Numbered from the whole stretch's first letter, positions 1 through 63,086 are shown. The stretch is DNA of 63,905 bases, filler included, from Malassezia furfur (GCA_052055015.1; 7 parts of 7 records of this genome joined end to end with filler, not necessarily neighbours in it), one strand, 5' to 3'. Numbers and translations: made by a program. Notes: a model not told the origin generated them from the letters alone.

Positions 1-3000
1 CGGCCGTGGGTGGTGTCGTGGGCCGCGGCGCGGCGGGCAGCAGCAGGTCGGCGCGCAGGCGCTCCATTTCGCGGAGCGCGTCGAGCGACAAGGCATTGGC
101 TTCGAGCACGCTCCAAAGATGGCGTCGCATTGTGATGCGCAGCGCGAAGTGGTCCATGAGGTGCACCGCGCGGCACAGCAGCGTCGGGTTGCGGAACCGC
201 TCCGGGTATTTTGTGTGTACTTTGGCGAGTGCGTGCCAAGCCGTGCTGGCGACCACGGCGTTGCCGAGGCTTGTCATCAGCGACCAGATGTGGGCCTCCT
301 CGACGTTCGCTGCAGGCACCATGCGTGGCACCGGCGCGGCGGGTGGGCTCGGTGGCTGGGGTATCTAGGTGAGGCACGGCACGTACATGGAGCAAGTCGC
401 TGCCCTCGGTCGGGAGGCAAAGCGAGAGGTCGGCGTCGGTGTGCAGCGCGTACCATCCGTAGCGCTTCAGCGCCTCTGCGCCCTGCTGTGTCTCAGTGAG
501 TAGGTTCAGCGCATAGAAGCACGTCGCGCGCACCGACACGACGGGCGCCGTATCAGCGAGCGCGGTGATGGCAGCGACCGCGTTGCGTTGTTCGAGCAGC
601 GCCAGGCCATGGTCCGAGGAGCCGGCGTGTCCCTGCGCGTGAGTGTGTCAACGTACCAGCGCCCAGAGTGCGGCCTTGCAGTGCAGCACGGCATCGGTAC
701 TCGCGGTGGTGCGCAGCGCCGCGAGGAGGCGCTCGAGGTGGCCCGTGCGTGCAAGGAACGCCGCGCCCGCCTCGGTCGCAACGAGCTGTGCGTAGAGGTG
801 CACGGGCAGCGGAAGTGCGTCGACGTCCAGTGTGCGCTGGAGCACCTGCTCGGCGTCGGCGACGTAGGCCACATTGCGGTAGTGGAGCCAGTGCTCGGCG
901 CAGCGTGCGACGAAGCCCTCGTCGTGCAGCTCGGCAAAGCCGTTGGGGTGCGACAGGAAGCGGAGCAGCAGCTCGTCGTCCTCCTCGCCGAGCAGTGCAA
1001 GGAGCGGGCGCTGCGCCATCACCGCGGCCAGCATCGCCGGGTGTGCACATGCGTCGCGGAGCAGCTGCGCGGCGAGGCGACGGACCTGCGGCGCGACGTC
1101 GTGCAGCTGCGCGAGCAGCAGCGCAATGGCCCACGTCTGTGGCTCGGCATCGAGCCAGAGGTGCTGCGACACGCACAGCGTCGCCGACAGACGCACCTGT
1201 GCGACGCCCGCCGTGAGTGCGCGCTGCAGAAACAGCCGCGTCGGCGCGTCGTGTGTGTAGTCGAGCGCCTGCACGAGCGTCTCGGTGACGAGCGCCGTGT
1301 GGTCGTCCAAACTACACAGGGCGAGCAGCGGCGTGTAGATGCGTGCGCGGTAGAGCAGGTCGAGGCCCGCGGTGCTCTCCGAGAACACTTGCAGGAAGTC
1401 GACGTAGCCGCCCACGAGCGTCGAGCGCATCGCGCGTGCCGACAGCAGCGCGTCGGGTGCACGAGCGACGAGCTGCTCGAGCGCCTCGCGCAGCTCGGTG
1501 AGGAAGCGGTCCTCGGCAAGGAAGCGTACGCCGTCGGTATGGAGGAGCACGGTGCGGAAGTACTTGCGCCCGATCGCCGTCCACACCTCGTTGCCCGCGT
1601 TCGCTCGGAGCGCTGCGTAGCGCTGCGAAAAGGGCCTGAAGAAGGACAGGAGGCGCCGCACGAGTTTCGTGTTGGTCAGCGCCTCGTCGAAGCGGCGCGG
1701 GTCGCGCAGCGGCCCATCGAGCAGCTCGTGGAGCACCGCCTGGTTCCACGCCTGGTGCTCCTTCGTGGCCATCACCATCGAGTCGCGCAGCAGCGCGCGG
1801 AAGTGCGCATCGTCCACCAGCGCGTCCTTCTGCATGCGCACGTCGTCCAGGTAGTGCTGCTGGTGCTCGGACGCGACGAGCGAGCTGCTGCGCAGGCGCG
1901 ACTCGACTGCGTCGATCGCCTGCAGCGCCGTCTTGGCCGCGAGCTGGTCGAGCGGCGCGTTGTGCGTGTCGCGCGCGGGATGTACGAGCTGCGGGAAGGC
2001 GTGCAGCTCGCTGCTTGATGCCGGGAACACGCGCTGCGCCGCGTGCAGCACGAGGTAGAGCAAGTGACTCGCCGGAGCGCGCAGCGCCGGCGCATCACGC
2101 ACAATCGCCACAAGCGCATCGAGCAGGTGCGCGTCGAGCAGCAGCTTGAGCACCAGCGCAAGGTACTGGTCGCGCGGGAGTGTGCGTGGAATGGGCGGTG
2201 CGCTGTGCCGTTGGGCGTGTGAGCGTCTCCGCGGCGGCGGCCGCGGCTCGGTCGGGCGGAAGAGCGCCGTGAGCGTCGCCAGGATGCGCATCTGCGTGCG
2301 CTCCTGGTCCAGACGCAGTGCCGCGACGAGCGCACGCAGTGCCACGCCGTCGTCTAGGCACAGGTAGAGCAGGCCCTGCCATGTGGACAGCAGCCGCAGC
2401 ACGACCTGCTCTGTGGTGCGCAGGCGCTGGTCGTAGTGGTCCTGCGTCGCGAGCGGCACGTTGGTGAAGCCCGCAAGGACTGCAGCCAGGTCCATGTTGG
2501 CACCGACCAGCCTGCGCGTCTCGGGGCGCTCCAGCAACCCCAGCAGGCCGTCGGCGAGTGCGAGCGACCGCGCCGGGGGCATGTCACAGATCGCGCGCCA
2601 GAGCGGCTCGAGCGCGAGCGTGCGGCCGAGAAGCGGCGCATCGAGCATCGCGAGCTCGGCGAGCGTCTCGATGACTGAGGCATACAACGGGTCTTCGGGC
2701 TCTTGTGCGATCGCCGTAAGCGTGCGCACGAGCCCTTCGGTGACGAGCGTCTCGCCGAGCCCGAGGCGCTCGGTCCACGACACAAGTGCGCGCATGCACT
2801 TGAGCGCCTGCTCGCGCTCGTGTGCATCGGTGCGCTCGCGTACGAGTGCGCGGCTGAGCAGCAGCGGCAGCACGGCCGCATACGACTCGGCGAGGCGCAG
2901 GACGGCGTCGCGGTGCAGCAGGTAGCGCACGAGGTGCACGGCGTGTGCACGGACGCGGTCGTTGCCCCCGTGGCCCATCAGCTCGAGCAGGCTGGGTGAG

Positions 3001-3580
3001 TGGCGGCGACGTACGCTGGCAAAAGTTCGGGCACGTCGCGGTCGAGCGGTGCGCGCAACGACGCATGGGTGCGCAACAAGCTCAGAAGGCACAGGAGGGT
3101 GTCGATCTGCGCACGCGTCGTGCGCCGTGCGCCGCCGTCGCGTGCTCCGGGCGCCTCCCTGCTTGCGCTGTGTGCGGTGCTCGTGAGCACGCGTGCAAGC
3201 GACGTGGCGAGCCGGCCGACACGCGCTTCGGTGCCCTCGTCGGTGGGCATTGCATAGCGCAGCTCGGGCCGGTTGAGATCCTCGAGCCCCTGGACGGCGC
3301 GAATCGCGCGTGGTTTCAAAAATGTGCCGCTGGGATCGGACGGGACGCTGGGCTGGAGTACGTCGCGGCGCGCCTGAAGCGCGGCGATCTGTTCTTCGGC
3401 CACGTCGAGCTCACGCTGGATCTGCGAGCGGAGCGCGCCGCTTTCGGCGCCTTGTGCGTCCAGCACACGGAGAATGCTTTCTGCTCCATGCTTGATGCGC
3501 AACTCGAGCTCCAAGCGCTCTGCGACGTCCGCGAACTGCGTCAGGGGCCCAGCGCCTGCCTCGTTCGCGCGCGCCGCCAT
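1..3580 (-). CDS. AVO3: TORC2 subunit Rictor (Avo3/Ste20), 3' end runs off window; introns 2992-3014, 633-656, 365-386
   Basis: N-terminal HR1-like segment (LELELRIKHGAESIL), EREQALK motif, KAALWALGHAGSS and SVRATCFYAL...GAEALKRYGW motifs, all in frame after removing three GT-AG introns. Confidence 0.9.
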
Positions 3581-3630
3581 CGCGTTGGGGCCCACGTGGC
3601 AGTGGAGGTGGGGCAAGGCGTGCCGCGACG

Positions 3631-5543
3631 ATGTGGCTGTGGCAACTGGGGCTCGCTGCGTTGGCGGGCGTGGTGTCGGTGGGTGCCGCGCCCGTGGCGC
3701 ATGACAGCCGCTTTCCCGAGGGACGTACGCTGACCGATTCCAACTTCACGTCGGTGCAGCACGGCGCCTGGCTCGTCGAGTTCTACTCGCCCAAGTGCCC
3801 CACGTGTCAGCGGTTCGCTCCCGTGTGGGCGCAGCTGGGCGATGCCAAGGACGCATTGCGCATGGATCCCGTCGCGCCGCTGACGATCGCGCGCGTCAAC
3901 TGTCTGATCTCAATGGATCTGTGTGTGCAGGAGCAGGTGCAGTCCTATCCGCAGATCACGCTGTATCACGACGGCACCAAGATGGATGCGGATATCGACC
4001 ACGACTTCTCGCTCGACAACCTCGCCGCGTACGTGGATAAGGCCGCGGAGGCGTATCGCGTGAAGAAGACAACGGGTGCGACGGATGCACAGAGCGCCGC
4101 CCCACCCGCGCCCCTGTCGACGTCGGCCCCCGCATCTGAGGCCGTTGCGTCGACCACGGCCACTGCCGCGCCGGCCTCCACGACGCCGGCCGCCGTTGCG
4201 CAGGGCACATCTGACGCATCGAAGTCGGGCATGTCGCTTGCTCCTCTGCCGGGGCTCACCGAGTACGGCTCTTCGACGCTGCCGAACGAGGCGTCGCTCG
4301 AGGCGTACCTCGGCACCGACCACGGCCAGGGTCCCTCGTTTGTAAAGTGTACGTGACGGCGACTAACCCAGTCTATGCCCCCTGGTGCCACCACTGCCGC
4401 GCGATGGCGCCCGAGTACGCCAAGGTCGCCGTTTCGGTCAAGGGCCAAGTGAATGCGATCGCGGTCAACTGTGAAAAGTACAGCGATCTGTGCCTCAAAT
4501 ACAACATCAAGGGCTTCCCCACGCTCCGCGTGTACGCCAACGGCAACAGCACCGCGTTCCAGGGCGAGCGCACCAAGCAGACGATGCTCTCCTTCCTCCA
4601 GGAGCAGGGCGCGTACACCTCGCTGCATGGCATCCGTGCGCAGGAGCTCGACGCGGAGCTGAGCCGCGCGCGCGTCTCGCTCCTGTACCTCGTGTCGCCC
4701 ACGGCGCCTGCCACCGAGAAGGATGCGGTCGACCTGGCGGCCATCGCGTACGACCACGGCTCGGTGCTGCACGCGACCGACCCCGAGCTGCTGCGCCGCT
4801 TCCCTGCGGCGTCGCGCGCCGGGGCCAGTGACGGCAGCAGCGGCTCGCGCCTGCTCGTGTTCAAAGAGTACCAGTCGCAGCCGTCGGCGGCGCTCGAGCT
4901 GCAGACGCTGCCGACGAATGCCGCAGACGCCAGCGCCCAGATCGAGCAGTGGTTCGAGCGGCATGGCCACGAGCGCCTTGCGCAGGTCGACGGCGACTCG
5001 CTGCAGCACACGCTCGAGAACGCCCAGGGCCAGCCTGTGGTGTTGGCGGTGCTGGGTGCCGACACCAACGATGCGACGGCCCTCAATGCGCAGGTCGACA
5101 GCGTGCGCCAGCTGGCGAACGCATGGGCGCAAAAAGAGGCGCTGGATCAGGACACGACGCTGCGCTTTGTGTGGCTCGACGCGGAGCGCCACCGCGACCT
5201 GCTGGACGAGTACAGTGTGAACGTGGCCAAGGTGCCGCAGCTGCTCTACTTCCGCCCGACCGACCACATGGTCGTCGCGTACGACGGCGACACGTGGCTC
5301 GAGCAGAACGCAGCACTGGCGTGGCTGACACGCGCGCAGACGGGCGGCGTGTCGGGCGGGCGCTACGGCTCCATGCTGGGCCGGACGATGTCGACGGTGC
5401 GGCACTCGGGCCGCAAGGCGGGGTCGGTGGTGCAGGAGCACCCGCTGTTTGTGGTGCTGCTGGTCGTGCTAGGCCTGCTACTGAACCCCAAGACGCGCCG
5501 GATGCTGCGTCCGGTGACGCGCGGCTATAGGAAACTGGTGTAA
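3631..5543 (+). CDS. Membrane-anchored protein disulfide isomerase-like thioredoxin protein (Eps1-like); intron 4349-4371
   Basis: Signal peptide, WLVEFYSPKCPTC and (after splicing) FVKFYAPWCHHC thioredoxin motifs, C-terminal TM helix. Confidence 0.85.
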
Positions 5544-6477: not shown

Positions 6478-7301
6478 ATGCGTGGGAGTCTCTGGCTTGC
6501 GCCGTTTGTCGTGGCGTGCGCATCGCTCGCGCACGCGCGTGACGCGCCCATGCTGGCGTTCCTGTCTCCCCGCACCGATGCCAATGTCCTGCGTGCTCCC
6601 GAGGTGGACGCACGCGCGCCGCGCTCGCCCAACGTCCCGGCGGACCGTGCCGCGGCACGGCTGATGCACCACTGCCACGACAATGGCGTCCCGGAGGTGT
6701 GCAACCTGGATGCACTGGTGCACATGGAGGTGGATGCGGTATGTGCCACAGACTTACCCAGCGCGACCATGCGTCGTTCGCACAGCAGATCGATGCCCAG
6801 CCGTCGCTGCGGAAGCGCGCGCTGCAGGCGCCGCACCAGCTCGTGCTGCCGGCCATCGACCAGAGCGCGCAGAGCTTTGGCGATGCGCTCAAGAATGCGA
6901 TACAGACCAAGTGCAGTGGATGGCGCTCCGTGTCCCACCGCGACTACGACGCGTCCCACCGGACGCTCATCTCGGTCGATGCCCAGGGTATGTCGGATGC
7001 CGAGATGCTGCGCACGCTCGAGGACATTGAGCGTGCCTCTCCATCGCACGCTGTTGTGATCACGGCTGCGTCACCCAAGCTACAGAGGCGCTACATCCCC
7101 GTCCAGCCGGAGCAGCTGCATTCGCATGGCAAGTTTTTGGAGCGCTACCAGCTGTTCTCGTCTGCGACCGTGTTGTCACTCGGCGTCGGTAGCTTCCTGG
7201 TCTTCTTCGTGCTCGTCGCCGTGCACCTTCTCAGCACGACTGAGACTCCCGATAAGCTCGGCAGTGGGCGCGGCGTGTCCCACGAAAAGAAGCGGCAATA
7301 G
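6478..7301 (+). CDS. ER type-I membrane protein, V-ATPase assembly factor Voa1/Big1 (Ac45-like); intron 6739-6761
   Basis: Signal peptide, FLERYQLFS before a C-terminal TM helix, terminal di-lysine KKRQ ER-retrieval motif. Confidence 0.6.
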
Positions 7302-7393: not shown

Positions 7394-9042
7394 ATGTCGA
7401 CCCAGGGTTCAGCATCGTCCAAGCGGCCGCTCACCAACGGCTCGGCCGCCACCAACCAATCACACATGCAAGTGGAAAAGGTGGGGCGCGACGTCGTATC
7501 GCGCCCAAACTCTTCCCTGAGCATGCGTACGGTGAACGTTGATCATGTCGAAGACGTCGCCGCGCACAACATGTCCATGTACACCCACGTCGACAACCAC
7601 TTTGATGGTACGCACGACCTGCTCACCTCAGAGAATACCACGCTAGTCCAGCGACACATACCTGGCAACGAACGCCCTGACATTCTCCGCAATCCGCGGT
7701 TTTGGATCTCGCAAACCCTCGCAGTCATCGTTTCTTCCGTGATCCTGTTGGCAGTCGTATGCGTCGGTCTGATGCACCGCTCTCTTGGTCTTATTCCGCG
7801 CCTCATCCGTCTCAAGGGCACGCCCTTGCGCAGCTGGGACTGCCATGGGCGCTGGAAAGGCGAGAAACTCGTCAAGAGCCCACAGTACTATGCGCGCAGC
7901 TGCGGCTTTGACATCGCTGACGAGCAGGTCGAGACCAAGGACGGCTATTATCTGCGCATTCACCGCGTCATCTGCAACGACACTGAGCAGATGCGCCGCG
8001 GACCGGGTAAGGGCTACCCTATACTCATCCTTCACGGCCTGTTTCAGTCCTCGGGCTCATTCATTACCTCAGAAGAGCGCAGTCTCGCCTTCTGGCTTGC
8101 CGCACAAGGATACCAGGTATACTTGGGGAACAACCGCGCTGCCTACGACATGGGACATCGGCGGTTCAGCCGGTATGCGCCCGAGTTTTGGGACTACAAC
8201 ATTCGTGACCTTGCTTTGTACGACCTTCCTGCAATGGTTGACTATGTCCGCCAACGCACCGGGTACGAAAAGATTGCCTTTATCGGGCATTCCCAGGGCA
8301 ACGCAACCGGATTCATTGCACTCTCGCGCTGGTTTGTGCCCGAGCTGGGGACCAAGCTTTCGTACTTTGGTGCACTGGCGCCCGCGGTGTTTGCAGGGCC
8401 GTTGACCAAATGCTTCCCTCTGAGCTACATGTGCAAGCTTGATTGGCCGACGTGGCGCCGTCTTTTTGGCGTCCTGGACTTTATTCCGTTGATGAAGTGT
8501 ATGTCGTGAGTCTCATTCCAGTTTCGTACGATTGGACGCCCGCTGCGCCATATGCGGCGCTTGGCTACCAGATGTTTGGTACGCAAGGATGTATCTAACC
8601 CAGCCTACCTGTTTGAGTGGAACGACACCAACTGGCTTTCTCGGCGCAAACCTAAAATGTTCCGGTTCACACCGCAGCCTGTATCGTCTGCGGCCATGTT
8701 CTGGTGGGGCGGCAAAGACAGCTTTGTGACACGTGGCTCGCTCTTTGAGCCGGACCAGCAGTGGTTTGAGGAACACTTCCCGCCCTTGGCCCTCTATGGC
8801 GGTGGCCGAGACCGACTTGTCCTCACTGAGCCATTGGTGGAGCACATTCGCAAGCATGAGCCGAACGTGCGTCTGTTGAGGGTGAAAATCCAGCCGGAAG
8901 CAGAGCATTGCGACCATTACTGGGCAGCAGATGCCGTTGAATGGTGTTTCATGGACATTGTCGGTACGTGGACGATTAACCGTCAGATGATATCGAAAAT
9001 ACACGATATGATCGGCAAGACGCCCAACTGGTCTCTGTATAA
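7394..9042 (+). CDS. AB-hydrolase lipase / steryl ester hydrolase (Tgl1/Yeh family); introns 8499-8521, 8579-8603, 8964-8986
   Basis: VETKDGYYLRIHR, LHGLFQSS, GNNR, GHSQG nucleophile elbow, EHCD His motif; N-terminal TM segment. Confidence 0.85.
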
Positions 9043-9262: not shown

Positions 9263-9362
9263 NNNNNNNNNNNNNNNNNNNNNNNNNNNNNNNNNNNNNN
9301 NNNNNNTTAATTAATTAANNNNNNNNNNNNNNNNNNNNNNNNNNNNNNNNNNNNNNNNNNNN
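9263..9362. other. Artificial contig linker N44-TTAATTAATTAA-N44
   Basis: Identical 100-nt spacer with stops in all six frames. Confidence 0.97.
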
Positions 9363-10309: not shown

Positions 10310-10955
10310 GTACATACCCTGTCGACAAAAACCGTTTTCCTGTAGAAAGCAAGTTCTGCGTGAGTTCGCGGCGTACCAGCAATCGATCCACGAATGTCGT
10401 CCAGTGCACGGTGCCGCACGGCGTCTTTAGGCGGCGCCCAGACGCGCTCGGCGCCGTACCAGCGCCGCACGAGCTCCTTGATGGTGCTCACGTCGACGAT
10501 CCGGTAGTGTAGGTGCGCGACCAGCTCCGGCATCTCGTTCACCAAAAAGCTCTTGTCCGCATGCACCGTGTTGCCCGCCAGGCACGCGTCGCCTTTCCCA
10601 GGCACGCGGTCCAACACGTATGCAAGCAGCGCCGTGCGCACGTCGTTGTGCGACGGCGCATCGGGCGCAAGACAAGCATCGGTGAGCCCGGTCTCTTTGT
10701 GTGTCGACGTGCACCACGCGTCCATCTGCGCCAGCACTGCGGGCGGCGTCGCGATCACGTACGACACACCCTCGTCGACGGGGCGCAGATCGCCATCGGT
10801 AATCACGCACGCGACCTCCAGCAGCCGCTCCTTGCGAGGATCCAGTCCCGTCATCCTGTGTCAGCGTGCACAACACACTCGCAGTCAATCCACACTAGCG
10901 GGCCGTCTTCGCGGCCCAACACGCGCGTCGGCGCCGGCGGGGGGATGGGCGCCAT
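10306..10955 (-). CDS. REX2: Oligoribonuclease (DEDDh exonuclease); introns 10856-10878, 10356-10376
   Basis: PLVWIDCEMTGLD and HRALDDIRGSIAELAFYR motifs are restored by splicing; LAGNTVHADK, HYRIVDVST. Confidence 0.92.
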
Positions 10956-13652: not shown

Positions 13653-14768
13653 ATGATTCCTGCCTGGAGGGCGAGCATCCGTGCGCCAGGTTGTCGCGCG
13701 TTTGCAGCGCACGCAACACTATGCACAAGCGCTGTCCGGCAAAGTGCATGGCCCACACCACCGCGCACGTCCGACGTGAGCATGAATACCTCAGGCCCCG
13801 TCTCGGTGGCGAGCCTTACGCGGCAGATGGCTGAGAAGAAACCCATCGTGTGCATAACCGCTTACGACTACCCCACTGGTCTGGCTGTCCGTGCGGCCGG
13901 CGCTGAGATCTGTCTTGTGGGCGACTCACTAGCGAATGTGGCATTGGGACATTCGTCCACACGGAGCCTCTCGCTCGAAGCGATGATTCACCACAGCACC
14001 GTCGTCCGTGATGCAATTCGGGCGAACGACTTGAAATACGACTCCCTATGTCCCCCTGAACCCCTCCTTGTTGTGGACATGCCGTTTGGAACATGCGAAG
14101 TTTCCGTCGAGGATGCAACGCGTAACGTGCTGCGGGTTGTGCAAGAGACGCAAGCACAAGCAGTCAAAATTGAGGGCTCGCGCGAGCTGGTGCCCCTCGT
14201 GGAGAAGCTCGCTACGTACGGGATCTCGGTCATGGCCCATGTCGGCTTGCAGCCGCAACGCTTTGGCGATGCCGCCTCGCTCCGTGTTCAGGCAGCACGG
14301 GCGGATAGCGCCTTTAAGCTGTTCGAGGACGTGCTTGCGCTGCAAGAAGCAGGCAGTTTTGCGATCCTGCTCGAGTGCGTACCATCGCGCATTGCCGAGG
14401 CGATCAGTGAGCACGTATCAATCCCTGTCATTGGAATTGGCGCAGGGCCTCACACGCACGGCCAAGTGCTGGTGGGTAGTGACCTGGTGGCCGATCTCGA
14501 GAGCCCTGCGCATGTCTCTGCGGCGCTGCGTACCCAGCCCCAGGACGTGCAAGGCGTGGATACACCAACCGAGTGGCCGGCGCCGCCCAAGTTTGTGCGC
14601 TCTTTTGCTCCTATGAGTTTAGGCGCTCTACGTATCCAGGCCTTCCGTGCATTTGCCGATGCAGTGCGCGCACGCACCTTCCCCGAAGTCACCCGCGAAG
14701 CGTACCGCATCAAGTCCGAGGAATTGGCCAAATTCCGGGCGATGCTGGAGGCGCGTCATAGCTCCTAA
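13653..14768 (+). CDS. ECM31: 3-methyl-2-oxobutanoate (ketopantoate) hydroxymethyltransferase, PanB family
   Basis: ITAYDYP, LVGDSL, VVDMPFG, VKIEG, HVGLQPQ, IGIGAG motifs; mitochondrial-type presequence. Confidence 0.93.
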   Translation: MIPAWRASIRAPGCRAFAAHATLCTSAVRQSAWPTPPRTSDVSMNTSGPVSVASLTRQMAEKKPIVCITAYDYPTGLAVRAAGAEICLVGDSLANVALGHSSTRSLSLEAMIHHSTVVRDAIRANDLKYDSLCPPEPLLVVDMPFGTCEVSVEDATRNVLRVVQETQAQAVKIEGSRELVPLVEKLATYGISVMAHVGLQPQRFGDAASLRVQAARADSAFKLFEDVLALQEAGSFAILLECVPSRIAEAISEHVSIPVIGIGAGPHTHGQVLVGSDLVADLESPAHVSAALRTQPQDVQGVDTPTEWPAPPKFVRSFAPMSLGALRIQAFRAFADAVRARTFPEVTREAYRIKSEELAKFRAMLEARHSS

Positions 14769-14804
14769 TGACTAGGTACGAATGTGGAGATGCACTCCAC
14801 CAGC

Positions 14805-16676
14805 ATGCGTCTCGTCTGGCTTCGCGGGGGAAGGGCGTCGTTGCATACGTCCGTACGTGCCGCAACGGCGCGGCCACCGTTGTTTCACCTGGAGAATGCG
14901 GCGATCCCACATGCCAAAAGTGTAGGTGGAACGCCAGCACAGGGTCTTTCGTGGACGATTGAAGACCTTGGGAAGGACCAGTGCTGGGCAGTCATTGGGC
15001 CGTCCGGCGAGACCGGCGGCGCAGTGCGGAATGCGCTTCGCGCGCTGCTTCTAGGAGAGTCGCGTGCGCGGCGAGCCGACGAGGACAAGTCACTTCATGC
15101 ACCCGCGCATCGTTTCCTAGAGTCAAGTGGACAGGCACCACAGCATGCCATTGCACATGTCTCATTTGGCACCCGTCCGTCGCAGAGCGGCGATTTTGTC
15201 GACTACTCTACGCGCTATGGCTCGATACGTGGCGAGGACCGTGTGACGCTACTCGAGAGCCTGCTGGAATCGCTGGGGGTGTACACAGGGATCGTCGCGC
15301 AGCAGCACATGCGCCCGGATCCACTGGCCCCCGACGACTCCGAGTCGGCGTCGGGCGTCGGATTGCTCAAGTGGCCCAACGAGGAGGCACGGCGCAAGGC
15401 CAAAGAAGATGCACATGCAGCCCTCGCACGAATTCGGGAAACTGCGCCCCTCTTGCACATCGATGAGGCGCTCCTGCAGCGCCCGGTCGTTGCACTGTCC
15501 AACGGACAGACACGCCGTGCGCGTATCCTGCGGGCGCTCGTATCGGGTGCTCAATTTGTGGTGCTGGATGAGCCGTTCACGGGTTTGGATCCAGTGACGC
15601 GCGACGACATATCCCGCCTCTTTTCTGAGGTGCATGGCGCGCGTCGTCCCCGACTCCTTTTGATTTTGCGCGAGCAGGACCAAGTGCCGTCGTTTATTAC
15701 GCACGCGCTTCGCATTGACGATGAGGGGCACATTGTGCATGGCCATATGGACGAGGTTGCCCCCGCCCCGTCAACGGCGTATGCACCCGGTAGCTATGAG
15801 CGTGTGCAGGCGAACTATGCGGCCGGCACCGGTGTCGGGGATGCGACGCAGCCGCCGGTGGTGGAGATGCACGACGTCTCGATCGAATATGGCGGTGTGC
15901 GTGTGCTGAACAACATTTCGCTGACGCTACGCCCCGGCGCGCGTCTCGTGCTGGTGGGAGACAATGGCAGTGGAAAGACGACGCTGCTGTCACTGCTGCT
16001 TGGCGATAACCCCCGGTCGTACGCGCTGGACGCGTCGCAGCTCGCGCTGTTTGGCGCGGCACGCGATGCTCCGCGCAACGCACATGTGCTTCTGCAGCGC
16101 CGGATGGGCCACCTGTCACCGGAGCTCTTCAACGCGTTCCCGCGGCGCAGTCTCGAAGCGGGCGGGCTGACAGTCGAGGAGGCCGTCGCGAGTGGCTTTG
16201 ACGGCATCTTCACGCGGCGCAAGCTGACACCCGAGCGCCGGGCGCGCGTGCACCAGCTGCTGGGTCTGTTTGTGGACGTCCTGGTGGCACACGAGCAGCA
16301 CTCGACCGGTGCGGCGTTTGGCGGGGTTGAGGCACTGGCCGAGTCGTCGTTTGCCTCGCTCACGCACGGGTCCCAGGCGCTGGTCCTGCTGCTCCGTGCG
16401 ATTGTGCATCGGCCGCAGTTTGTGGTGCTCGACGAGCCGTTCCAGGGGATGAGTGCGAAGCAGTCGGCGCGTGCGCGCGAGTTTCTTGACGGCGGCGTGG
16501 TGCCGACGAGCGACGGCTTCTGGATGGAGGGGCTGTCTGAGGAGGAGCAGGCGCAGGAACGCTCGTGGCGGCAAAAGTTAGTCCTGGTCATGGTGAGCCA
16601 CTACCATAGCGAGTGGCTCTTGTCATGTGGCCGCCTGCTGCGTTTGCAGCGCGGGCATGCCGTAGAGCAGCTGTAG
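14805..16676 (+). CDS. Soluble double-NBD ABC ATPase, ModF/YDR061W-like
   Basis: LSNGQ signature and LDEPFTGLD in NBD1 (Walker A degenerate), GDNGSGKT and LDEPFQGM in NBD2; no TM domain; start could also be 14790. Confidence 0.8.
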   Translation: MRLVWLRGGRASLHTSVRAATARPPLFHLENAAIPHAKSVGGTPAQGLSWTIEDLGKDQCWAVIGPSGETGGAVRNALRALLLGESRARRADEDKSLHAPAHRFLESSGQAPQHAIAHVSFGTRPSQSGDFVDYSTRYGSIRGEDRVTLLESLLESLGVYTGIVAQQHMRPDPLAPDDSESASGVGLLKWPNEEARRKAKEDAHAALARIRETAPLLHIDEALLQRPVVALSNGQTRRARILRALVSGAQFVVLDEPFTGLDPVTRDDISRLFSEVHGARRPRLLLILREQDQVPSFITHALRIDDEGHIVHGHMDEVAPAPSTAYAPGSYERVQANYAAGTGVGDATQPPVVEMHDVSIEYGGVRVLNNISLTLRPGARLVLVGDNGSGKTTLLSLLLGDNPRSYALDASQLALFGAARDAPRNAHVLLQRRMGHLSPELFNAFPRRSLEAGGLTVEEAVASGFDGIFTRRKLTPERRARVHQLLGLFVDVLVAHEQHSTGAAFGGVEALAESSFASLTHGSQALVLLLRAIVHRPQFVVLDEPFQGMSAKQSARAREFLDGGVVPTSDGFWMEGLSEEEQAQERSWRQKLVLVMVSHYHSEWLLSCGRLLRLQRGHAVEQL

Positions 16677-18592: not shown

Positions 18593-18692
18593 NNNNNNNN
18601 NNNNNNNNNNNNNNNNNNNNNNNNNNNNNNNNNNNNTTAATTAATTAANNNNNNNNNNNNNNNNNNNNNNNNNNNNNNNNNNNNNNNNNNNN
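18593..18692. other. Artificial contig linker
   Basis: Same 100-nt spacer. Confidence 0.97.
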
Positions 18693-19818: not shown

Positions 19819-19869
19819 GCGCCTAGTCGAAGAAATGCGGCCCAATTTACGGAAGTGGAGGAAGAATCG

Positions 19870-45147: not shown

Positions 45148-45358
45148 CGCCGTAGCATCCTCCCGCCGGAGGCGCATAGTTCCCAGGTCCCACGTGCATC
45201 AATCCCCGCCGGCGCGGCGCGGCGCCGTGTTGCTCAACACGCAACGCGCCTCGCCNNNNNNNNNNCGGCGGGAGGATGCTACGGCGCTACGGCGCGGCGC
45301 GTTTTTGTGCCGACGACCCTGGCGAGGCGCGTTGCGTGTTGAGCAACACGGCGCCGCG
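45135..45358. repeat. Two interleaved perfect inverted-repeat pairs around a 10-N gap
   Basis: 45135-45168 is the reverse complement of 45266-45299 (34 nt); 45218-45255 is the reverse complement of 45321-45358 (38 nt). Confidence 0.9.
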
Positions 45359-45387: not shown

Positions 45388-46445
45388 ATGTCGGCGACGG
45401 CAGCGAGCCTGCCAGCCTCCGTGGGCCGTGATTCGGCGCGCGCCGGCCCCTCGTCCGGCGCCGCCGCTTCCTCGGCGCCGTTGAGCGTCGTGCCCAAGGC
45501 AGAGCAGACGGACGCGTGGCCGTCGGGCAGCGGCGCCGACGACCCTAGCCAGGGTGCGGCCGCTGCGCCCGACGGCCCGATCCGCGCGTACGCCAAGCTC
45601 GAGTTCCCTGGGTTCTCGTACTACGTCCAGACGCTCCAAGTCACCATCGGCCGGCGCCCAGGCCAGCTGCAAGGCGCCCACGCCGCGCCTGTGCGTGCGC
45701 CGACGCCGTCCGCGCGGCACGGCGACGTGGACGTCGACCTGGGCCCACTGAAATCCATTTCGCGCCTGCACGCGCGCATCTTTTACTCGACGCAGCCGCA
45801 TGCGTACCGGCATCGGACGCACCTCTCGCCGATGCTCACGCCCGGCGGCACGGCGCCCGACGCACGGGACGCCGCGAGCGACGCCGGCACGCCCGGTGCG
45901 GACGAAGGGCGCTTCCTGCTCGAGGTGCTGGGGCGCAACGGCGCGTTTGTGGACGACGTGTGGGTGCGCATGAACGGCGTTGCGCCGCTTGGGCGGCGCA
46001 CCAAGATCCAGATCGCGGAGCGTGTCTTCTACTTTGTGCTGCCGCCGCCCGCGCCCGTCGACGACGACGCGGCGAGTGTGTCGGGCTCCGAGAGCGGCGT
46101 CGCGCTGTCGGACGACGGCTCCGCCTCCTCCTCCGAGCTGTCCGACGTCGAGCACGACGAGGCGCCGGCGCCGACGCCGACGTCGCCCGCGGCGCCCAAG
46201 CTCGTGCTCAAGGCGCGCGCAAAGCTCTCGCCCCCGCGCAAGGACGCACCCAAGCGCGCGCACGACGCGTCGCCGGACGACGCACACGCCAAGCGGCGGC
46301 GCGCAGGCTCCGACGGTCCGGCGCCGCTGCCCGTCGGCACGCCGATCGGCATCGAGGCGCTCAAGCCGCCGCGCGGCAAGGGCAAGGGCAAGGGCAAGAG
46401 CAAGGCCGAGGCGCCGCCCGACGCGCCGGCTGAGGCGCCGCCCGC
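45388..46445 (+). CDS. FHA-domain (forkhead Fhl1/Fkh-like) transcription factor, 3' truncated
   Basis: AYAKLEF....YYVQTL.VTIGRR, DVDLGPLKSISRLHARIFY, LEVLGRNGAFVDD FHA motifs. Confidence 0.8.
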
Positions 46446-46545
46446 NNNNNNNNNNNNNNNNNNNNNNNNNNNNNNNNNNNNNNNNNNNNTTAATTAATTA
46501 ANNNNNNNNNNNNNNNNNNNNNNNNNNNNNNNNNNNNNNNNNNNN
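46446..46545. other. Artificial contig linker
   Basis: Same 100-nt spacer. Confidence 0.97.
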
Positions 46546-50462: not shown

Positions 50463-51938
50463 ATGGAGCGCTGGGAGCGCTGGGAGGTGCGCGCTGCGGA
50501 CGTGCGCGCGGCGCTCGCGCCAGGCGAGGCGCTCGTTGCCGAGCAGAGCGGCGTGGGGATGTACGACCGGCAGGAAAAGGTGCCGCTGCGTGCCGTAGGC
50601 ACCGCCGTCCTCACTACGCACCGCCTGGCGTACGTCGACGCCGCGCAGGCTGCCGAACAGTCGTGCTTTGTGCGCCTCGATGCCATTCGGCAGACGGAGC
50701 ACTATGCGGGGTTTTTGAAGAGCAGCCCCAAGGTCACCATCGTGCTGCGTGAACAGACCGCAGCACCGAGCGGGCCGTGGACGTGTGCGGTGTGCGGCTT
50801 CCAGAATACCAGGGCGACGTCGCTCGACGTGTGCGCCCTGTGCGGCGTCGCGCGGCCCGCGGAGACGACCAGCGCCACACCCAGTGCGCAGGCCGCAGCT
50901 TCCACATCGGCGAGCACCGTGCCTGCGCCGGTGGTGCCCGAGAAAGGGTGCCCGCGCTGCACCTTTCTCAACCACCCGGCGATGACCCACTGCGAGATGT
51001 GCGAGGCGCCACTCGCGACAGCCCCTGCGCCACCCACGCCTACCCCGACCCCAGCCGTGGCCCCGGTCGTGGCCCCTAGCTCGCCCCCTTTCGTCAAGTT
51101 CAGCTTCCGCAAGGGCGGCGACAAGGCCTTCTATGCACAGCTGCGCTCCACCCTCCAGTCCAAGCCGTGGCTCGTCGAGCCGCGACGGCGGCCGGCCGCG
51201 GGCATCGACGGCGTGCTCAGCCAGGACACAGCGCCCGCGGCCCCTGCCCCCGACGCCTTCCAGGACCTCGAGGCGCTGATGAAGCAGGCGAAGCAGATGG
51301 TCGATCTCGCCGCGACGCTGCGTACGCAGCTCGAGCGCCGCGAGCGTCTCTTGGCGCACGACGGGCAGCAGTCGCACGACGATACCGTCTCGATGATCCA
51401 GTCGGCGCTCGTCCAGCTCGGCCTCGCGGCGCCCGCCGTGACGCCCGAGATGGTCAAGAGCGAGCGCGAGTACCATGTCGAGCTGGCGCGCGAACTGGCG
51501 AGTCTGCTCACCGCACCGAATGGCATGCTTGACCGTGGCGTGCTGGCGCTCGACGAGGTGTGGGGTCTATGGAACCGCGCGCGCGGGACCGGTACGTGAC
51601 ATGCTTACGCAGCGCTCGTCTCGCCCAAGGTGCTGCGCCATGCCGTGGCGTACCTACCCGAGGTCACCTCGCCGCCGATCGCGCTGCGCGTGCTGCGCTC
51701 GGGCCGCACGATCCTGTATACCCCCCGCTTTGCAGACGCGGCCTTCGAGGCGCGCGTGTACGAGCACCTCGCCACGCCTCAGACCACGCTGCAGCTCGCG
51801 GCGGCCGAGCAGCTGCCGCTCGCCCTGCTCTCCGAGCTGCTGCACACCGTCGCGCAGCAGACGACACGCATCGCGCGCGACGACTGCGACCTGCGCGACA
51901 CGCGCTGGTTCCGAAACACGGTGCTGCTGGCTACATAG
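50463..51938 (+). CDS. VPS36: ESCRT-II subunit Vps36 (split GLUE domain with two NZF zinc fingers); intron 51592-51612
   Basis: LTTHRL, W.C.VC.F.N and CPRCTFLNHP..T.CEMC, KFSFRKGG, AFQDLEALM, NRARGTALVSP. Confidence 0.92.
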
Positions 51939-53007
51939 GCTTGCGTGCGTAGAAGAAGTAGTTGCACTGCTCCGTCCACCGCTGCGTGCCGCCGAGCAGC
52001 GGCGGCAGCCACGACGTCACGGGCTGCGCCGTGGCCGCCGCGTCGGCGACCGACGGGCGGGCGAGCACCCACTTTTCCAGCACAGGCAGGTACATGGTGC
52101 CGCGCGTCTCGTACTGCAGGCGCAGCGGCAGCGGCGCGACGGGCGCGCCGTCGGGCAGCGTCGCACGCCCGGTCGGCTGGGCGGCCTCAGGGCCGAACCA
52201 GCGGAGCTCGTCGCGGAAAAAGGACACAAGCTCCTCGGGGTTGATGTACTGCGCGTGGCGGTGCGTGCCGCGGCTCACCACACGCAGGAGGTCCTCGGCG
52301 AGGAAGATGGTCAGGAAGTAGGACAGGGCCGTACGCGACATGGTCGACATAAACACCATCCCACCGGGGCGCACAAGGTCCGCGACGCACCGCAGAAACT
52401 CGGCAGGGTCGTGGACGTGCTCTACGACCTCCATCGCGGTCACAACATCGTACTGCTGCCCCTCGTTGCGCAGCGCCTCGGCCGTCGCTGCAACGTACGC
52501 CAGCGAATGCGGCTCAAACGCGCGGGGGTCCGCACGCAGACGCAGCCCGGGGTCCTGCTGCGCATGCACGGTCGCCACCTTGACGTTCTCCGCCGAGGCG
52601 TCCACGCCCGTGACGCACGCGCCGAGCCGCGCAGCGCTCTCCGTGAGGATGCCACCGCCCGAGCCGATGTCGAGCATCGACAGGCCGGACAGGAACGACG
52701 CAGGCGGCGGCGACGGCGGTGCCTCTTTGCCCAGCACGTCGGCGAGCGCCGCGTCCCAGCCGCGCATCTCGTCGAGCTTCTCGCGCATAAACTCGATGCG
52801 CACGCGGTTCATGCGGTGCAGCGGCTTAAATTCCCCGTCCTCGTCCCACCAGTGCTCCGAGAGCCGGCTAAAGTGGGCAATGTCCGCAGGGTCGATCGAC
52901 GAGTAGCTCGCGCGTGCGACCGACGTGTGCAGCGCGCGCGGTACGCACGGCGCACGGCGCACGGCGCGCGACACCGGCGCAGCCCACCGGCACGGCGGGC
53001 GGATCAT
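51931..53007 (-). CDS. COQ3: Ubiquinone biosynthesis O-methyltransferase
   Basis: WWDEDGEFKPLHRMN.VR, LDIGSGGGIL, MEVVEHV, GTH....YINPEEL. Confidence 0.92.
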   Translation of the reverse strand: MIRPPCRWAAPVSRAVRRAPCVPRALHTSVARASYSSIDPADIAHFSRLSEHWWDEDGEFKPLHRMNRVRIEFMREKLDEMRGWDAALADVLGKEAPPSPPPASFLSGLSMLDIGSGGGILTESAARLGACVTGVDASAENVKVATVHAQQDPGLRLRADPRAFEPHSLAYVAATAEALRNEGQQYDVVTAMEVVEHVHDPAEFLRCVADLVRPGGMVFMSTMSRTALSYFLTIFLAEDLLRVVSRGTHRHAQYINPEELVSFFRDELRWFGPEAAQPTGRATLPDGAPVAPLPLRLQYETRGTMYLPVLEKWVLARPSVADAAATAQPVTSWLPPLLGGTQRWTEQCNYFFYARKPM

Positions 53008-53030: not shown

Positions 53031-55296
53031 CTACATGGCCAGCACATACAGGCAGCACGCCGCGGCCCCCTCCACGACCACGGGCAGGTAGCCCAGCAGC
53101 ACGATGGGCAGCGTCGAGGCGCGCAGCACATGGTAGTCCCACGCGGCCAAGTCGATCGCGGCCGGCAGCTGCGCACGCACGTACTGCAGCGTATGCGACG
53201 CCGGCGCCCACGACACGGCAGCGGCCAGGAGGGCGATGAGCGCCACGGGCGTCACCAGCACAAGACGCACATAGCTGGCAAAGTAGCGCGCGCGAGCGGC
53301 CCAGCCACGCGCGATCGGCACGGCGGCGTGCATGCCCCACGGCGGCACAAGGGGGTACAGCGCGAGCGTCAGCAGCAGCGCCATGGTCGTCGCCTGCGCA
53401 AAGTTGAGCGTGCTCAGCACACTCACGACCATGCCCGCGTGCAGCAGCGCAAACGCCTGCAGACACGTGCCGAGCTGCACGAGGTCGAGGCGCAGCGCAC
53501 GCGCCGCGGCGGCCAGCGCCCACGGCAGCACCGCCGGCACCGCGCCGAGCCAGACTAGCGCGTGGCACGCGCCCCACCCCCGCACGGCGCAGTCGACGGG
53601 CGCATGCACCGCGATCGCGAGACACACAAGCCCGCCGGCATGCGCCGCGGCGATGCACCCGAGCGCGGACCACACCGGGCGCGCCATCTCGCGGTACGCC
53701 CGGAGCGCAATGCCGCGCAGCTCGGCCGGCACGTTGGCCAACGCGCGCTCGAGCTCGGCATACACGGGGCGCTCGAGGCGCGGCGCATCCGACGCAGGCA
53801 CGACGCGCTCCGCGAGCTTGGTGCGCAGCCGATCGCGGCGCGCGCCGAGCGCGTTCCACAGCGCAAGGCCCGTGAGCGTCAGCGCGGCACCGAGGAGCAG
53901 CGGCACAACGAGGTACGTGCCGATCGGGACAAACAGCCGCGGCGAGAGCAGCAAATAGAAGAACTGCGAGTGGTGCAGCCGCTCGTGCAGGTTCGAGAAG
54001 GCCCGCAGCGTCAGCTCCACCACCCCGCCCAGGTCGTAGAACCCGCGGGGGCCGGGCGCCGGCTCGGCAAACAGCGTGAGCGCATCGACGTGGAAGGGCA
54101 GCAGCACCCCGTGCACGCCGCTGGGGTGCCCGGCCAGCTGCAGGCGCCACTGCGCCGCAAGCGCGCGCCAGCCGGCCAGGAAGCGGTGCACGGCGACGGG
54201 CGACAACACGCGCTGCTCGAGCCACACGAGCGGCGCGCGCGGCACGCCCTTGGCCACGAGCGTGTCGAGCGTCGGCACGGCATGCTCCACCTCCTCGTAC
54301 GTCGCGCCGTGCAGGCCCATGGGCGGATCAAAGTAGAGGCCTTGGAGGATGTGCGTCACCGTGTTCAGGGTATCGAGGTTCGGCAGCTGCGCGTCGCGCC
54401 CTTCGTGCAGGAGCGACACCGAAGAATAGGAGTCGGCGGGGTAGTCGAGTGCGACGGCGTTCCAGATGTGCGCGCCGCCGCTGTGCACCTCGTCGGCGAC
54501 GAGCGTCGGCTGCGGCTTGGCAAAGTACGCCGTGGCCCACGCCTGCATCCCATCCAGGAAGCCATCGCTGAACACCACCAGCAAATCCTTGCTCCAGTAC
54601 GCCGACGTGGACAAGCGGCGCACAAGCGCCAGCGTGATGGCCACGCCGCGCACGTTGGCCGCACGCACAGCGCCGGGCGCGGTGTAGGGCAGTCCCGCAC
54701 CGTTGGCACGGGGGTCCTTCCAGCGGCTCAGCCAGCTCGCGGCGAGCACGGTGGCCTCGCGCCCGTCGATACGCGGCGCACGCACGCGCGCGTACACATT
54801 GGTGCCGTGGATCGGCGCGCCGTGGGGGACGTAGAAGGTGTAGTTCTGGGTATGTGTTTCGAGGCCGAGGCGCTCGAGCTCCGCGCTGAGGTACGCAATG
54901 CGCCCGGCCGTGTCGTTGGCACGCGCAAACGCCTCCAGTGCGTCCGAGGCGCGGTCCGCGTAGTGCACGTCGTCCCAGCCCCAGGTCCGCTTCACCTGCC
55001 CGGGCTGCAGCGCGTTTTCATCCACATACACGCCCCGCGAAAACGGCGGGCCGGGCACAGCAAGCAGCACGAGCCAGATCAGGGCGGCCACGACGAGCGC
55101 AGCGCTGGGTGAGCGCAACAGCGACGTACCGCAGGACCGGTGCCAAGCGGCGCAGCGCCGCAACGATGCGCTGCCGACGCCGCACCTGCGCCGCGACGCG
55201 CGTCAGCGACACGTCGTCATACGCGTCCGCGTCGGGTGCGGCATCGTCCGCGAGCTTCTCGGGCGTCGGATGGCGTACTGCATTCATGGGATCCAT
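53031..55296 (-). CDS. GAA1: GPI transamidase subunit Gaa1; intron 55105-55129
   Basis: YVDENALQPGQ, RAPR.DG.EA, WSKD, QLPNLD..N, NLHERLHHSQFFYL, multi-TM C-terminus. Confidence 0.9.
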
Positions 55297-55697: not shown

Positions 55698-55797
55698 NNN
55701 NNNNNNNNNNNNNNNNNNNNNNNNNNNNNNNNNNNNNNNNNTTAATTAATTAANNNNNNNNNNNNNNNNNNNNNNNNNNNNNNNNNNNNNNNNNNNN
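55698..55797. other. Artificial contig linker
   Basis: Same 100-nt spacer. Confidence 0.97.
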
Positions 55798-58720: not shown

Positions 58721-59388
58721 TTAGCAGCACCCTCCCTTCTTCTGCTGGCCACCGTCGTCGGCGCTCGGCTGGACCGAAATGGTCTCACCGCCGGTCGGCT
58801 TGATGACATCGTCCGACGACTGCAGCTGCTTGTTCGAAACAATACGGTAGATTTCTGGATGAGCCCACACCACCACGTACCCGTCAAGATATTCTGGAAC
58901 GCCTGCTCGACGTTGGACGCATCCAGCGCCGACGTCTCGATGAACGACAGGTTGTTCTCGGCCGCGAACGCCTTGGCCTCCTCGGTGGGGACCGCACGCA
59001 GGTGCCGCAGATCGCTCTTGTTACCGACAAGCATCACCACAATGTTGCTGTCGGCATGGTCACGCAGCTCCTTGAGCCAGCGCGAGACGTTGACGTACGT
59101 CGAGTGTTTCGCGATATCGTACACAAGCAGCGCACCCACCGCGCCACGGTAGTACGCCGAGGTGATCGCACGGTAGCGCTCCTGGCCCGCCGTGTCCCAA
59201 ATCTGCGCCTTCACCGTTTTGCCGTCGACGTTGATGCTGCGCGTCGCAAACTCAACACCAATGGTGCTGCGACTCTCGAGGCTGAACTCGTTGCGCGTGA
59301 ACCGCGACAGCAGGTTCGATTTACCCGTGCCCGAATCACCAATGAGCACCACCTTGAACAGGTAGTCGTAGTTCGATTCGGCGGCCAT
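58721..59388 (-). CDS. ypt3: Rab11-family GTPase (Ypt3/Ypt31); intron 58855-58880
   Basis: [43 protein letters not shown]-terminal GGCC prenylation motif after splicing. Confidence 0.95.
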
Positions 59389-59498: not shown

Positions 59499-62016
<2,518 letters not shown>

Positions 62017-62080
62017 CGCCGCGCACGTTAAACGACGAGCCGCGACGACGCGCCTATGCCACGTGCGCCCACGTGCTACG

Positions 62081-63086
62081 CTACACCCCGCGGCGTGCAC
62101 GCAAGCTACCGAGCTCCACCAGCTGTGTGAGGGGCGGCGCACGTACCTCGTGGAGCGTGTGCAGGTTGTTGGTCAGGTCGGCGAGGTAGTCAATCATATG
62201 TGCATAATCAGCATCCTGTGTAAGCGGATGCATCGGACGTGCGCGTACGTACGCGTTCCTGGAGTGCGTCAAAGCGCGGGGGTGCGCGGCTGCCCTGGTT
62301 CGCGACAGCGGCCGCGAGCCGGCGGAGCAGTGCATCGTCGTGCGGGTGTGTCCCGCGCTGAACACCCTCGACGTATGCGCAGGCGCTTTGGAGACGCTCA
62401 TGGAGCGCCTGCATGGCCCCGCGCTCGGCGGTGAGCGCGGCGAGGATCGCGTTGCTCTCTGCAGACGACTCGTCGCCCGTGTGCCGAGCGCGGCTGTTGG
62501 CATCGTTCAGTACGACGTGCTCTGCGGGTGCTGTACCGAGCGCGGCCGTCGTCGGCTCCAGCTTGCCGTTACTAGGCAGGTAGGCCGAGATCGGCAGGGT
62601 GCCTGTTTTCTGTGCATATGTGTAGGCCGCGGCGCTGGGGTGCAGCACAATCGCCAGCGGTTCCGGTGTGTAGGTTTCGAGCGCCCGGGAGATGGTCTCG
62701 GCCGCGGGGGGGAGCTGCTGCACCGTGTACCAGCCGAGGACGTCCCATGCGGGGAAGACCTGCTGGACTGCGTGTGAGTGCGGTGTGCGACGTACACTGC
62801 TCCTGTCTCCGCTGCAGAAACGCAGTATCGATGAGCGCTTCTTCTGACGAGGCCGCGGCGGGCACCTCAAATGCGCTGTGCACCTCGATGTGCGAGCCCG
62901 ACGAGGTGCCAAGGAGGATGCCAAAGGCTGGGTCAGCATGCGCGGCACCTACCATGCGGTTCCTGCGCAAGCTGCAAGCGCGTGAGGTGCTCGACCATGA
63001 TCATGAGCGGTAGCGCGTGTCTGTGTGAGGCGCAAGACGTACACCACGACGCGTGCGCCGTGCGCCGCCGGGTCCACCTCGTCCAT
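62081..63086 (-). CDS. CSN6: COP9 signalosome subunit 6 (MPN domain); introns 63021-63042, 62928-62952, 62768-62795, 62216-62252, 62123-62146
   Basis: VHALPLM...EHLTR, FGILLG....IEVHSAFE, FL.RR.EQFQQVFP.WDVLGWY after splicing. Confidence 0.75.

Follow-up and report, generated by a model that had tools for sequence, protein, structure and literature searches.

The stretch of DNA analysed here (63,905 nucleotides (nt), referred to as the window) is densely packed with eukaryotic genes. Our gene model predicts 41 of them in 63.9 kilobases (kb), and the guanine-plus-cytosine (GC) content across the window is 60-71%. Pfam families found in it include RICTOR, PDI-like, oligoribonuclease, calpain, GH31, RNR large subunit, Ile-tRNA synthetase and CPSase small chain, together with Rad23-like, RPS25, Cdc4-like myosin light chain, AMMECR1, CLU, Vps36, Gaa1, Rab/Ras GTPase, MCM3 and others. 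Among named species, the best hits are Malassezia psittaci, with 89% identity for the product of the largest RNR1 exon, and M. furfur, with 88% for the JAB/MPN orthologue. The RNR1 product is also 83-87% identical to those of six other named Malassezia and 79% identical to that of Ustilago. Because of these identities, the host is judged to be a Malassezia of the furfur clade.

The genes of the window are interrupted, about once each, by short segments that begin with GT and end with AG. We estimate a probability of about 0.93 that these segments belong to the ordinary, U2-dependent major type of spliceosomal intron, in a furfur-clade Malassezia, and are reduced to little beyond their three recognition signals. 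An earlier sequence-only reading had claimed spliceosomal GT-AG introns of about 21-29 nt in this fungus. The claim is supported by what we observed directly, namely the signals, their excess over chance and their strand bias, the restoration of reading frame and homology in Pfam profiles and homologue alignments, and the exact absence of some segments from the orthologous DNA of relatives, as well as by a gene model that is blind to the motifs.

Intron census and signal anatomy

The curated set was built from a motif-aware pass of the gene model, which called 47 introns. Seven of these were rejected, and three segments, 10356-10376, 7608-7631 (with low confidence) and 19320-19345, were added to give 43. 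The rejected calls, which lacked the signals or were contradicted by Pfam continuity, were 10487-10521, 35254-35275, 37143-37159, 46316-46434, 52024-52072, 14755-14775 (which joined panB to an ABC gene) and 19325-19341 (superseded by 19320-19345).

The 43 introns have a median length of 25 nt and a mean of 29.9 nt, with a range of 21-111 nt. Thirty-one of them fall in the 21-29 nt class (30 without the low-confidence 7608-7631), in good agreement with the 'about 32' that the sequence-only reading had counted. All thirteen segments that it had named were recovered with coordinates and lengths unchanged, each on one strand, with GT..AG ends, a GT[AG]NG[TC] donor and a CT[ACGT]AC motif 5-7 nt from the 3' end. 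Beyond this ultra-short class, eleven introns measure 30-50 nt and a single one is longer than 50 nt (111 nt).

All 43 introns start with GT and end with AG, as expected of the U2 type. The donors are GTACG[TC] in 33 introns, GTATGT in 6 and GTAGGT in 4. At position 3, 40 introns have A and 3 have G; all 43 have G at position 5; and at position 6, 38 have T and 5 have C. This consensus is of the GURNGU class and would be able to pair with U1 and U6. The branch motif is CTCAC in 17, CTGAC in 12, CTAAC in 7, CTTAC in 4 and CTCAT in 2, which means that CT[ACGT]A[CT] is present in 42 of 43 introns. The remaining intron has TTGAC, and the motifs are of the YURAY class. The acceptor is CAG in 41 introns and TAG in 2.

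Short-class introns have a donor-to-branch distance of 16-23 nt, taken from the first G to the branch A, and a spacer of about 6-13 nt; counted in this way, the 13-17 nt proposed earlier is a little too small. The distance from the branch A to the intron end is 5 nt in 23 introns, 6 nt in 6, 7 nt in 9 and 8 nt in 3, so that 41 of 43 lie within 5-8 nt. Since only 5-8 nt follow the branch A, a polypyrimidine tract would not fit. The architecture described earlier, with a GTAYGY-type donor, a CTNAC branch and no polypyrimidine tract, is confirmed.

Excess over chance and the motif-blind gene model

We defined a strict pattern as GTA[CT]G[TC], followed by CT[ACGT]AC and then by the first AG 3-10 nt past the A, with a pyrimidine before the AG and a total length of at most 45 nt. 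On both strands of the window, 33 matches were found, compared with 1.8 +/- 1.3 expected from 100 third-order Markov simulations, none of which gave more than 7. Thirty-two of the 33 are in sense orientation within predicted genes, and none is antisense. The 33rd, 10356-10376, was scored as intergenic and is actually a sense match within the oligoribonuclease gene. The matches 62216-62248 and 62216-62252 have one common acceptor. Matches to a more general motif at 492-533, 1494-1529 and 29846-29887 lie within conserved coding sequence and are not introns.

The motif-blind test was a two-strand Viterbi gene model with codon usage, start and stop codons, and a flat penalty per GT..AG of 15-150 nt as its inputs. 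It was used in place of a single-strand Viterbi model, which was set aside for fusing genes and reading shadow frames; an initial scan joining open reading frames (ORFs), which was noisy in GC-rich DNA, was also set aside. The two-strand model called 44 introns, 27 of them at 45 nt or less. Donor and branch motifs were both present in 15 of these 27, as against 0.54% of the 12,450 GT..AG pairs of 15-45 nt. When compared with the curated 43, the motif-blind model gave 15 introns exactly, shared one boundary with 10, overlapped 8 and missed 10. Its 13 further calls outside the curated set were not accepted.

Restoration of reading frame and homology

Removal restores the frame or homology for 24 of the 43 introns, as judged by homologues, Pfam profiles and orthologues, and Pfam profiles continue across at least 10 junctions. 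The RICTOR gene (-) has introns at 365-386 (22 nt; GTACGT..CTCAC..TAG), 633-656 (24 nt) and 2992-3014 (23 nt). In tblastn searches, five homologues shift from frame -3 to frame -1 at 365-386 with contiguous residue numbers, and the frame of the homologues shifts from -1 to -3 at 2992-3014. RICTOR homologues in the representative library follow frames -1, -3 and -1 with contiguous residue numbers, and the spliced protein aligns across all three junctions. If retained, 633-656 would bring an in-frame stop and 2992-3014 a stop 34 nt downstream. Position 11 of the RICTOR_V profile is the first residue of the exon after 633-656, the homologue alignment there is gap-free, and this intron was found exactly by the motif-blind model.

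The two protein motifs that the sequence-only reading had quoted are indeed restored by intron removal. In the PDI-like gene, excision of 4349-4371 (+, 23 nt) restores FVKFYAPWCHHC, a stop would follow 5 nt downstream if it were retained, and position 26 of the Thioredoxin profile is residue 1 of the downstream exon. In the oligoribonuclease gene, excision of 10856-10878 (-, 23 nt; GTGTGT donor) restores WIDCEMTG, which aligns with EMTGLD of REXO2, and position 7 of the RNase_T profile is residue 1 of the downstream exon.

Profile continuity was also found at other junctions. In the Rad23-like gene (+), the exon before 36853-36878 (26 nt; exact in the motif-blind model) encodes 22 residues, and position 22 of the Ubiquitin profile is residue 2 of the next exon. 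In the AMMECR1 gene, position 33 of the profile is residue 2 of the exon downstream of 43638-43659 (-, 22 nt; stop 13 nt downstream if retained). In the MCM3 gene, MCM_OB positions 2-22 lie in the exon upstream of 61568-61595 (-, 28 nt) and positions 24-124 start from residue 1 of the downstream exon. For 40586-40624 (+, 39 nt; stop 5 nt downstream if retained) in the RPS25 gene, the Ribosomal_S25 profile has reached 98 of 101 positions at the exon end, and for 58855-58880 (-, 26 nt; CTCAT branch; exact in the motif-blind model) in the Ras/Rab GTPase gene, the Ras profile has reached 157 of 162.

The ATP synthase subunit d gene (-) has introns at 38559-38597 (39 nt; strict motif; internal stop if retained), 38806-38916 (111 nt; exact in the motif-blind model) and 39025-39074 (50 nt; GTGTGT..CTGAC..CAG). 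The Mt_ATP-synt_D profile spans the latter two, with positions 6-58, a 36-residue exon and positions 97-143. In the single long outlier 38806-38916, CTGAC lies toward the 5' part, and only TTGAC stands directly before the terminal AG.

The methyltransferase-16 gene contains 19320-19345 (-, 26 nt; GTACGT donor), an intron of medium confidence. Only the 26-nt version pairs the GTACGT donor with an intact ORF of 279 residues, and the 21-nt form 19325-19345 breaks the frame. The Methyltransf_16 profile spans the junction, with positions 17-111 and 118-154. The intron ends at the next AG, 8 nt past the branch A. Since the 26-nt form keeps the ORF, an AG only 3 nt beyond the branch A seems to be passed over. 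Apart from 38806-38916, every other curated intron has its AG at least 5 nt from the branch A.

The Cdc4-like myosin light chain gene (-) is interrupted by introns 1 to 4 at 41582-41615 (34 nt; strict motif), 41392-41427 (36 nt; exact in the motif-blind model; stop 5 nt downstream if retained), 41298-41325 (28 nt; exact in the motif-blind model) and 41126-41149 (24 nt). The five exons give a 141-residue product, which fits the length of S. pombe Cdc4p, and the exon spacing at intron 3 matches Cdc4p. Intron 1 directly follows an exon that consists of the ATG only (41616-41618, -), and the next exon reads SEAEWKEAF without a Met. The JAB/MPN gene (-) has introns 1 to 5 at 63021-63042 (22 nt), 62928-62952 (25 nt; GTAGGT donor; stop 17 nt downstream if retained), 62768-62795 (28 nt), 62216-62252 (37 nt) and 62123-62146 (24 nt), of which introns 3 and 4 were exact in the motif-blind model. 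The N-termini of the M. japonica and M. brasiliensis proteins align over the first junction, and introns 2 to 5 are supported by orthologue alignment. Without its five introns, the gene encodes 290 residues that align end to end with the annotated 290-residue M. japonica orthologue.

For the remaining introns, the signals are accompanied by frame, coding potential or gene-model agreement. A small gene at 31497-32052 (+), whose first exon is predicted to be only 17 nt long (31497-31513), contains 31514-31538 (25 nt; strict motif, sense; chosen by the motif-aware model), 31580-31601 (22 nt; GTAGGT donor; stop 14 nt downstream if retained; acceptor common to the motif-blind model) and 31850-31884 (35 nt; strict motif; donor common to the motif-blind model). 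The second intron of the Rad23-like gene, 37032-37053 (+, 22 nt), was exact in the motif-blind model, with a coding potential of 31.5/11.9 and the ubiquitin profile stopping at the exon end. Introns were also found at 6739-6761 (+, 23 nt) in the gene 6478-7301, with the strict motif, good coding potential on both sides and an exact motif-blind call, at 44034-44054 (+, 21 nt; stop 13 nt downstream if retained; coding potential 16.3/10.5) in an RF-1-domain gene, and at 55105-55129 (-, 25 nt; strict motif; exact in the motif-blind model) in the Gaa1 gene. If 51592-51612 (+, 21 nt; exact in the motif-blind model) in the Vps36 gene were retained, a stop would follow after 5 nt. On the 218-residue human VPS36 chain 3CUQ_B, the end of the upstream exon falls at residue 110, and the 107 residues encoded downstream of the intron are a fitting length.

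Presence and absence in related contigs

Four metagenome contigs from related Malassezia (L001-L004), with 83-86% protein identity, are collinear with positions 19,000-27,850 of the window. This region includes the MARVEL gene (+), with intron 1 at 23824-23864 (41 nt; exact in the motif-blind model; MARVEL profile positions 7-56 and 66-124 on its two sides) and intron 2 at 24071-24109 (39 nt), and RNR1 (+), with introns 1 to 3 at 25176-25204 (29 nt; GTGCGT donor; position 8 of the ATP-cone starts the next exon), 25499-25523 (25 nt) and 25640-25666 (27 nt), the latter two exact in the motif-blind model. The first exon of RNR1 is only 22 nt long (25154-25175).

All four contigs lack 24071-24109, 25499-25523 and 25640-25666 base for base, with the exons joined flush. 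The introns at 25176-25204 and 23824-23864 are kept in all four at lengths that vary (about 27-31 nt and about 28-66 nt, respectively). The signals are conserved at both shared positions, and 23824-23864 keeps GTACGT, CTAAC and YAG in the four contigs. RNR1 is essential and highly conserved, and a 25-nt insertion in it would, unless spliced, be a frameshift. Consistent with splicing, RNR1 without its 29-, 25- and 27-nt introns aligns gap-free over the three junctions with its homologues from Ustilago, Sporisorium, Meira, Termitomyces and Pisolithus.

As indicated by an ORF call from the closest relative (P0001) and by the M. psittaci record, RNR1 introns 2 and 3 are present in the furfur clade. 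Intron presence thus varies among Malassezia species, and both gain and loss are possible.

Alternative readings

The reading frame does not bear equally on all the introns. In fourteen of the 43 the length is divisible by 3, and five of these (7608-7631, 10356-10376, 39996-40016, 41126-41149 and 62123-62146) contain no in-frame stop, so that the frame does not demand their removal. It could be argued that 7608-7631, 39996-40016, 41126-41149, 62123-62146 and perhaps 10356-10376 are left unspliced and represent short coding insertions with splice-like signals that arose by chance. One of these, 7608-7631 (+, 24 nt), is a possible intron of the lipase gene with the strict motif in sense orientation. 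It lies within an unconserved N-terminal region and may be coding instead. For the group, however, we consider this explanation unlikely. Chance would account for only about 1.8 strict matches in the whole window. Reading through 10356-10376 (-, 21 nt; strict motif) would give the oligoribonuclease exactly 7 extra residues, which neither human REXO2 nor bacterial Orn has in alignments to PDB entries. The DUF7719 profile runs on across 39996-40016 (+, 21 nt; strict motif), with positions 2-22 and 28-68 on its two sides, and the residues of 62123-62146 are missing from annotated orthologues. At 41126-41149, exon 4 of the myosin light chain gene corresponds to residues 77-123 of the 140 of Cdc4p, and the remaining 17 residues are those of the last exon.

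Somewhat less likely still is that some pairs of short introns are single longer introns with distant sites, for example 8499-8603 (105 nt) in the lipase gene or 39803-39903 in the DUF7719 gene. In the lipase gene, 8499-8521 (+, 23 nt; CTCAT branch; stop 8 nt downstream if retained) and 8579-8603 (+, 25 nt; strict motif) bracket a predicted exon of 57 nt (8522-8578, +). In the DUF7719 gene, 39803-39848 (+, 46 nt; stop if retained), an intron of medium confidence with its branch A 17 nt from the 3' end, is followed by a predicted micro-exon of 24 nt (39849-39872, +) that reads LLILLIWW and then by 39873-39903 (+, 31 nt; strict motif; chosen by the motif-aware model). At these places the motif-blind model called 8499-8603 and 39807-39937 instead, and no PDB homologue was found to cover the lipase exon downstream of the junction. 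On the other hand, both short introns of each pair have complete signals, the enclosed micro-exons encode plausible protein, and the short version is correct wherever homologues or relatives are usable, as in RNR1, RICTOR, MARVEL and JAB/MPN.

That the segments are pseudogene frameshift insertions, assembly errors or products of non-spliceosomal excision (of the Ire1/HAC1 or tRNA type) is very unlikely: nothing was found for it beyond the fact that splicing is deduced here from sequence, whereas the host genes are essential and single-copy (RNR1, MCM3, RPS25) with exons under clear purifying selection, all segments have canonical U1 and U2 recognition signals with a strict strand bias, and the same architecture is verified in M. 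sympodialis by RNA sequencing (RNA-seq).

Several points, in addition to the five stop-free introns and the lipase exon, weigh against our interpretation of the segments as spliceosomal introns. For 19 of the 43, the evidence consists of motif, frame and coding potential; among the segments named earlier, these are 6739-6761, 31580-31601, 37032-37053 and 44034-44054. Since the motif-aware model gave seven calls that we judged to be artefacts, the gene strands taken from the model are not fully independent of the motif. The JAB/MPN orthologues used for alignment are themselves predictions, and a PDB search detected no similarity for the downstream exon of Vps36. The DNA examined comprised the 64-kb window and three related contigs of 14 kb, and the description of the introns as 'genome-wide' draws on the literature. 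Finally, we infer removal from the messenger RNA, recognition by U1 and U2, and lariat formation from the signals and alignments, strongly so for splicing itself.

Proposed mechanism

If the segments are U2-dependent introns, we suggest that GUACGU would be recognised by U1 and later by U6, and that U2 would pair with the CUNAC region with the A bulged. The 3' site would then be the first AG to occur 5 nt or more past the branch A, chosen with no help from a polypyrimidine tract. The spliceosome may, as the sequence-only reading proposed, be adapted to minimal lariats. A complete spliceosome would in this case be able to act on introns that contain little beyond donor, branch and acceptor, as is already implied by the RNA-seq-validated annotations of the genus.

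A further proposal, which is tentative and which we regard as more doubtful than not, concerns the limits of this architecture. The length mode of 21-25 nt and the sharp floor of 21 nt (a donor G-to-branch A distance of 16 nt and 5 nt more) would lie below the published medians of the genus and near the limits of ciliate and nucleomorph introns, the near-invariant GUACGU donor may reflect co-evolved U1 and U6, and 'first AG at least 5 nt away' could be a measurable steric limit. If this were true, Malassezia would offer a tractable fungal model for a full spliceosome acting on minimal lariats. Malassezia is transformable, and our literature searches turned up no paper on this proposal.

Comparison with known systems

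Ultra-short introns are already published for the genus Malassezia, and the finding in the window is a correct rediscovery. In the available excerpts of the report on M. sympodialis, the curated annotation has 5350 introns with a mean of 30 base pairs (bp), 99% of them supported by RNA-seq, and the addition of RNA-seq to a homology-only prediction gave 2585 (156%) more supported introns (PMC5389616). The haploid Malassezia species all have compact genomes with very short introns, according to the part of a review that was available (PMC7426719). For M. restricta, excerpts of two reports give a minimum intron length that was set to 20 and then to 15 in re-annotation (PMC6473144) and an average and median length of 37.2 and 30.0 (PMC9241646). 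The background to the sequence-only reading, that fungal introns are usually longer than 40 nt, overlooked Malassezia as a published exception, and the novelty of the finding is accordingly much lower.

The introns of the window resemble those reported for the genus in mean length (29.9 nt here and 30 bp in the excerpts of PMC5389616), and gene density is similarly compact, with 41 predicted genes in 63.9 kb here and 0.58 genes/kb given there. The median of 25 nt, from a sample of only 43 introns, compares with 30 for M. restricta KCTC 27527 in the available part of PMC9241646. It may be somewhat below that of M. restricta, with the small sample kept in mind. The donor, branch and acceptor architecture is described here, and no description of it was found in the available portions of the Malassezia papers PMC5389616, PMC6473144 and PMC9241646. 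Our literature search, which did not cover the supplementary length figure of PMC5389616, turned up no paper that deals with how Malassezia introns are spliced or with the architecture of their signals.

Introns of a similar class of about 15-30 nt occur in ciliates, chlorarachniophyte nucleomorphs and microsporidia, with sizes taken in part from the available excerpt of PMC5014332. These introns, from unrelated lineages, are also GT-AG and have no room for a polypyrimidine tract. In contrast to them, the introns of the window have an explicit and strong CTNAC branch and a lower bound of 21 nt. Ciliate-type introns are under translational surveillance, and stop-free introns with lengths that are multiples of 3 are depleted among them. 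Such depletion is not seen in the window, where 14 of 43 lengths are multiples of 3 and five of these are stop-free, in what is a small sample.

Typical basidiomycete introns, such as those of Cryptococcus neoformans with a mean of 63 bp (PMC8476143), have the same signals and presumably the same machinery, and the introns of the window are roughly half as long. The window further differs from them in its GTACGT donor consensus and in having, for the most part, only 5 nt between the branch A and the end of the intron.

Consequences for annotation

The sequence-only reading had warned that gene finders would mis-annotate these genes. Faulty public protein records, together with published annotation work as far as the excerpts of PMC5389616 and PMC6473144 go, bear this out. 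For RNR1, the M. psittaci record is missing 18 residues beside junction 2, the M. sympodialis record has one extra residue at junction 1, and the record of Malassezia sp. CBS 17886 joins the gene to MARVEL, its upstream neighbour. In P0001, RNR1 introns 2 and 3 are both translated and about 55 residues are nonsense. From the JAB/MPN records of M. brasiliensis and M. furfur, internal or N-terminal stretches are missing. Public Malassezia proteins with read-through, skipped or fused exons at these short introns are P0001, P0003, P0004, P0081, P0122, P0123 and P0124. If a gene finder or ORF caller bars introns of 21-30 nt, its Malassezia proteins come out truncated, fused or frameshifted. The practical value of our results is a warning for annotation, and what value remains lies also in the details of the architecture.

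Other features of the window

Thirteen runs of N occur in short clusters about 9.3 kb apart, among them 9263-9362, 18593-18692, 27893-27992, 37170-37269, 45256-45265, 46446-46545 and 55698-55797. We read them as masking and not as biology. Several gene models are broken by them, among them that of the Rad23-like gene and, at its start, that of the Ile-tRNA synthetase gene.

An Rfam search found no small nuclear RNA genes in the window or in contigs L001-L003, and transfer RNA (tRNA) genes were its only hits. One tRNA gene, called tRNA-Val(AAC) by ARAGORN, lies at 22977-23066 (+), with counterparts at 3748-3844 in L001, 3731-3826 in L002 and 3515-3610 in L003. It measures 90-97 nt across the window and the contigs, which is sufficient to contain a tRNA intron, and its DNA identity in the related contigs, 79-83%, is above that of the flanking coding sequence.

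At 13983-16676 (+), the gene model fused a ketopantoate hydroxymethyltransferase and an ABC-ATPase through a 21-nt 'intron' without signals (14755-14775), and this region is probably two separate genes. The Pfam match of the ketopantoate hydroxymethyltransferase gene begins at position 76 of the 259 of the profile.

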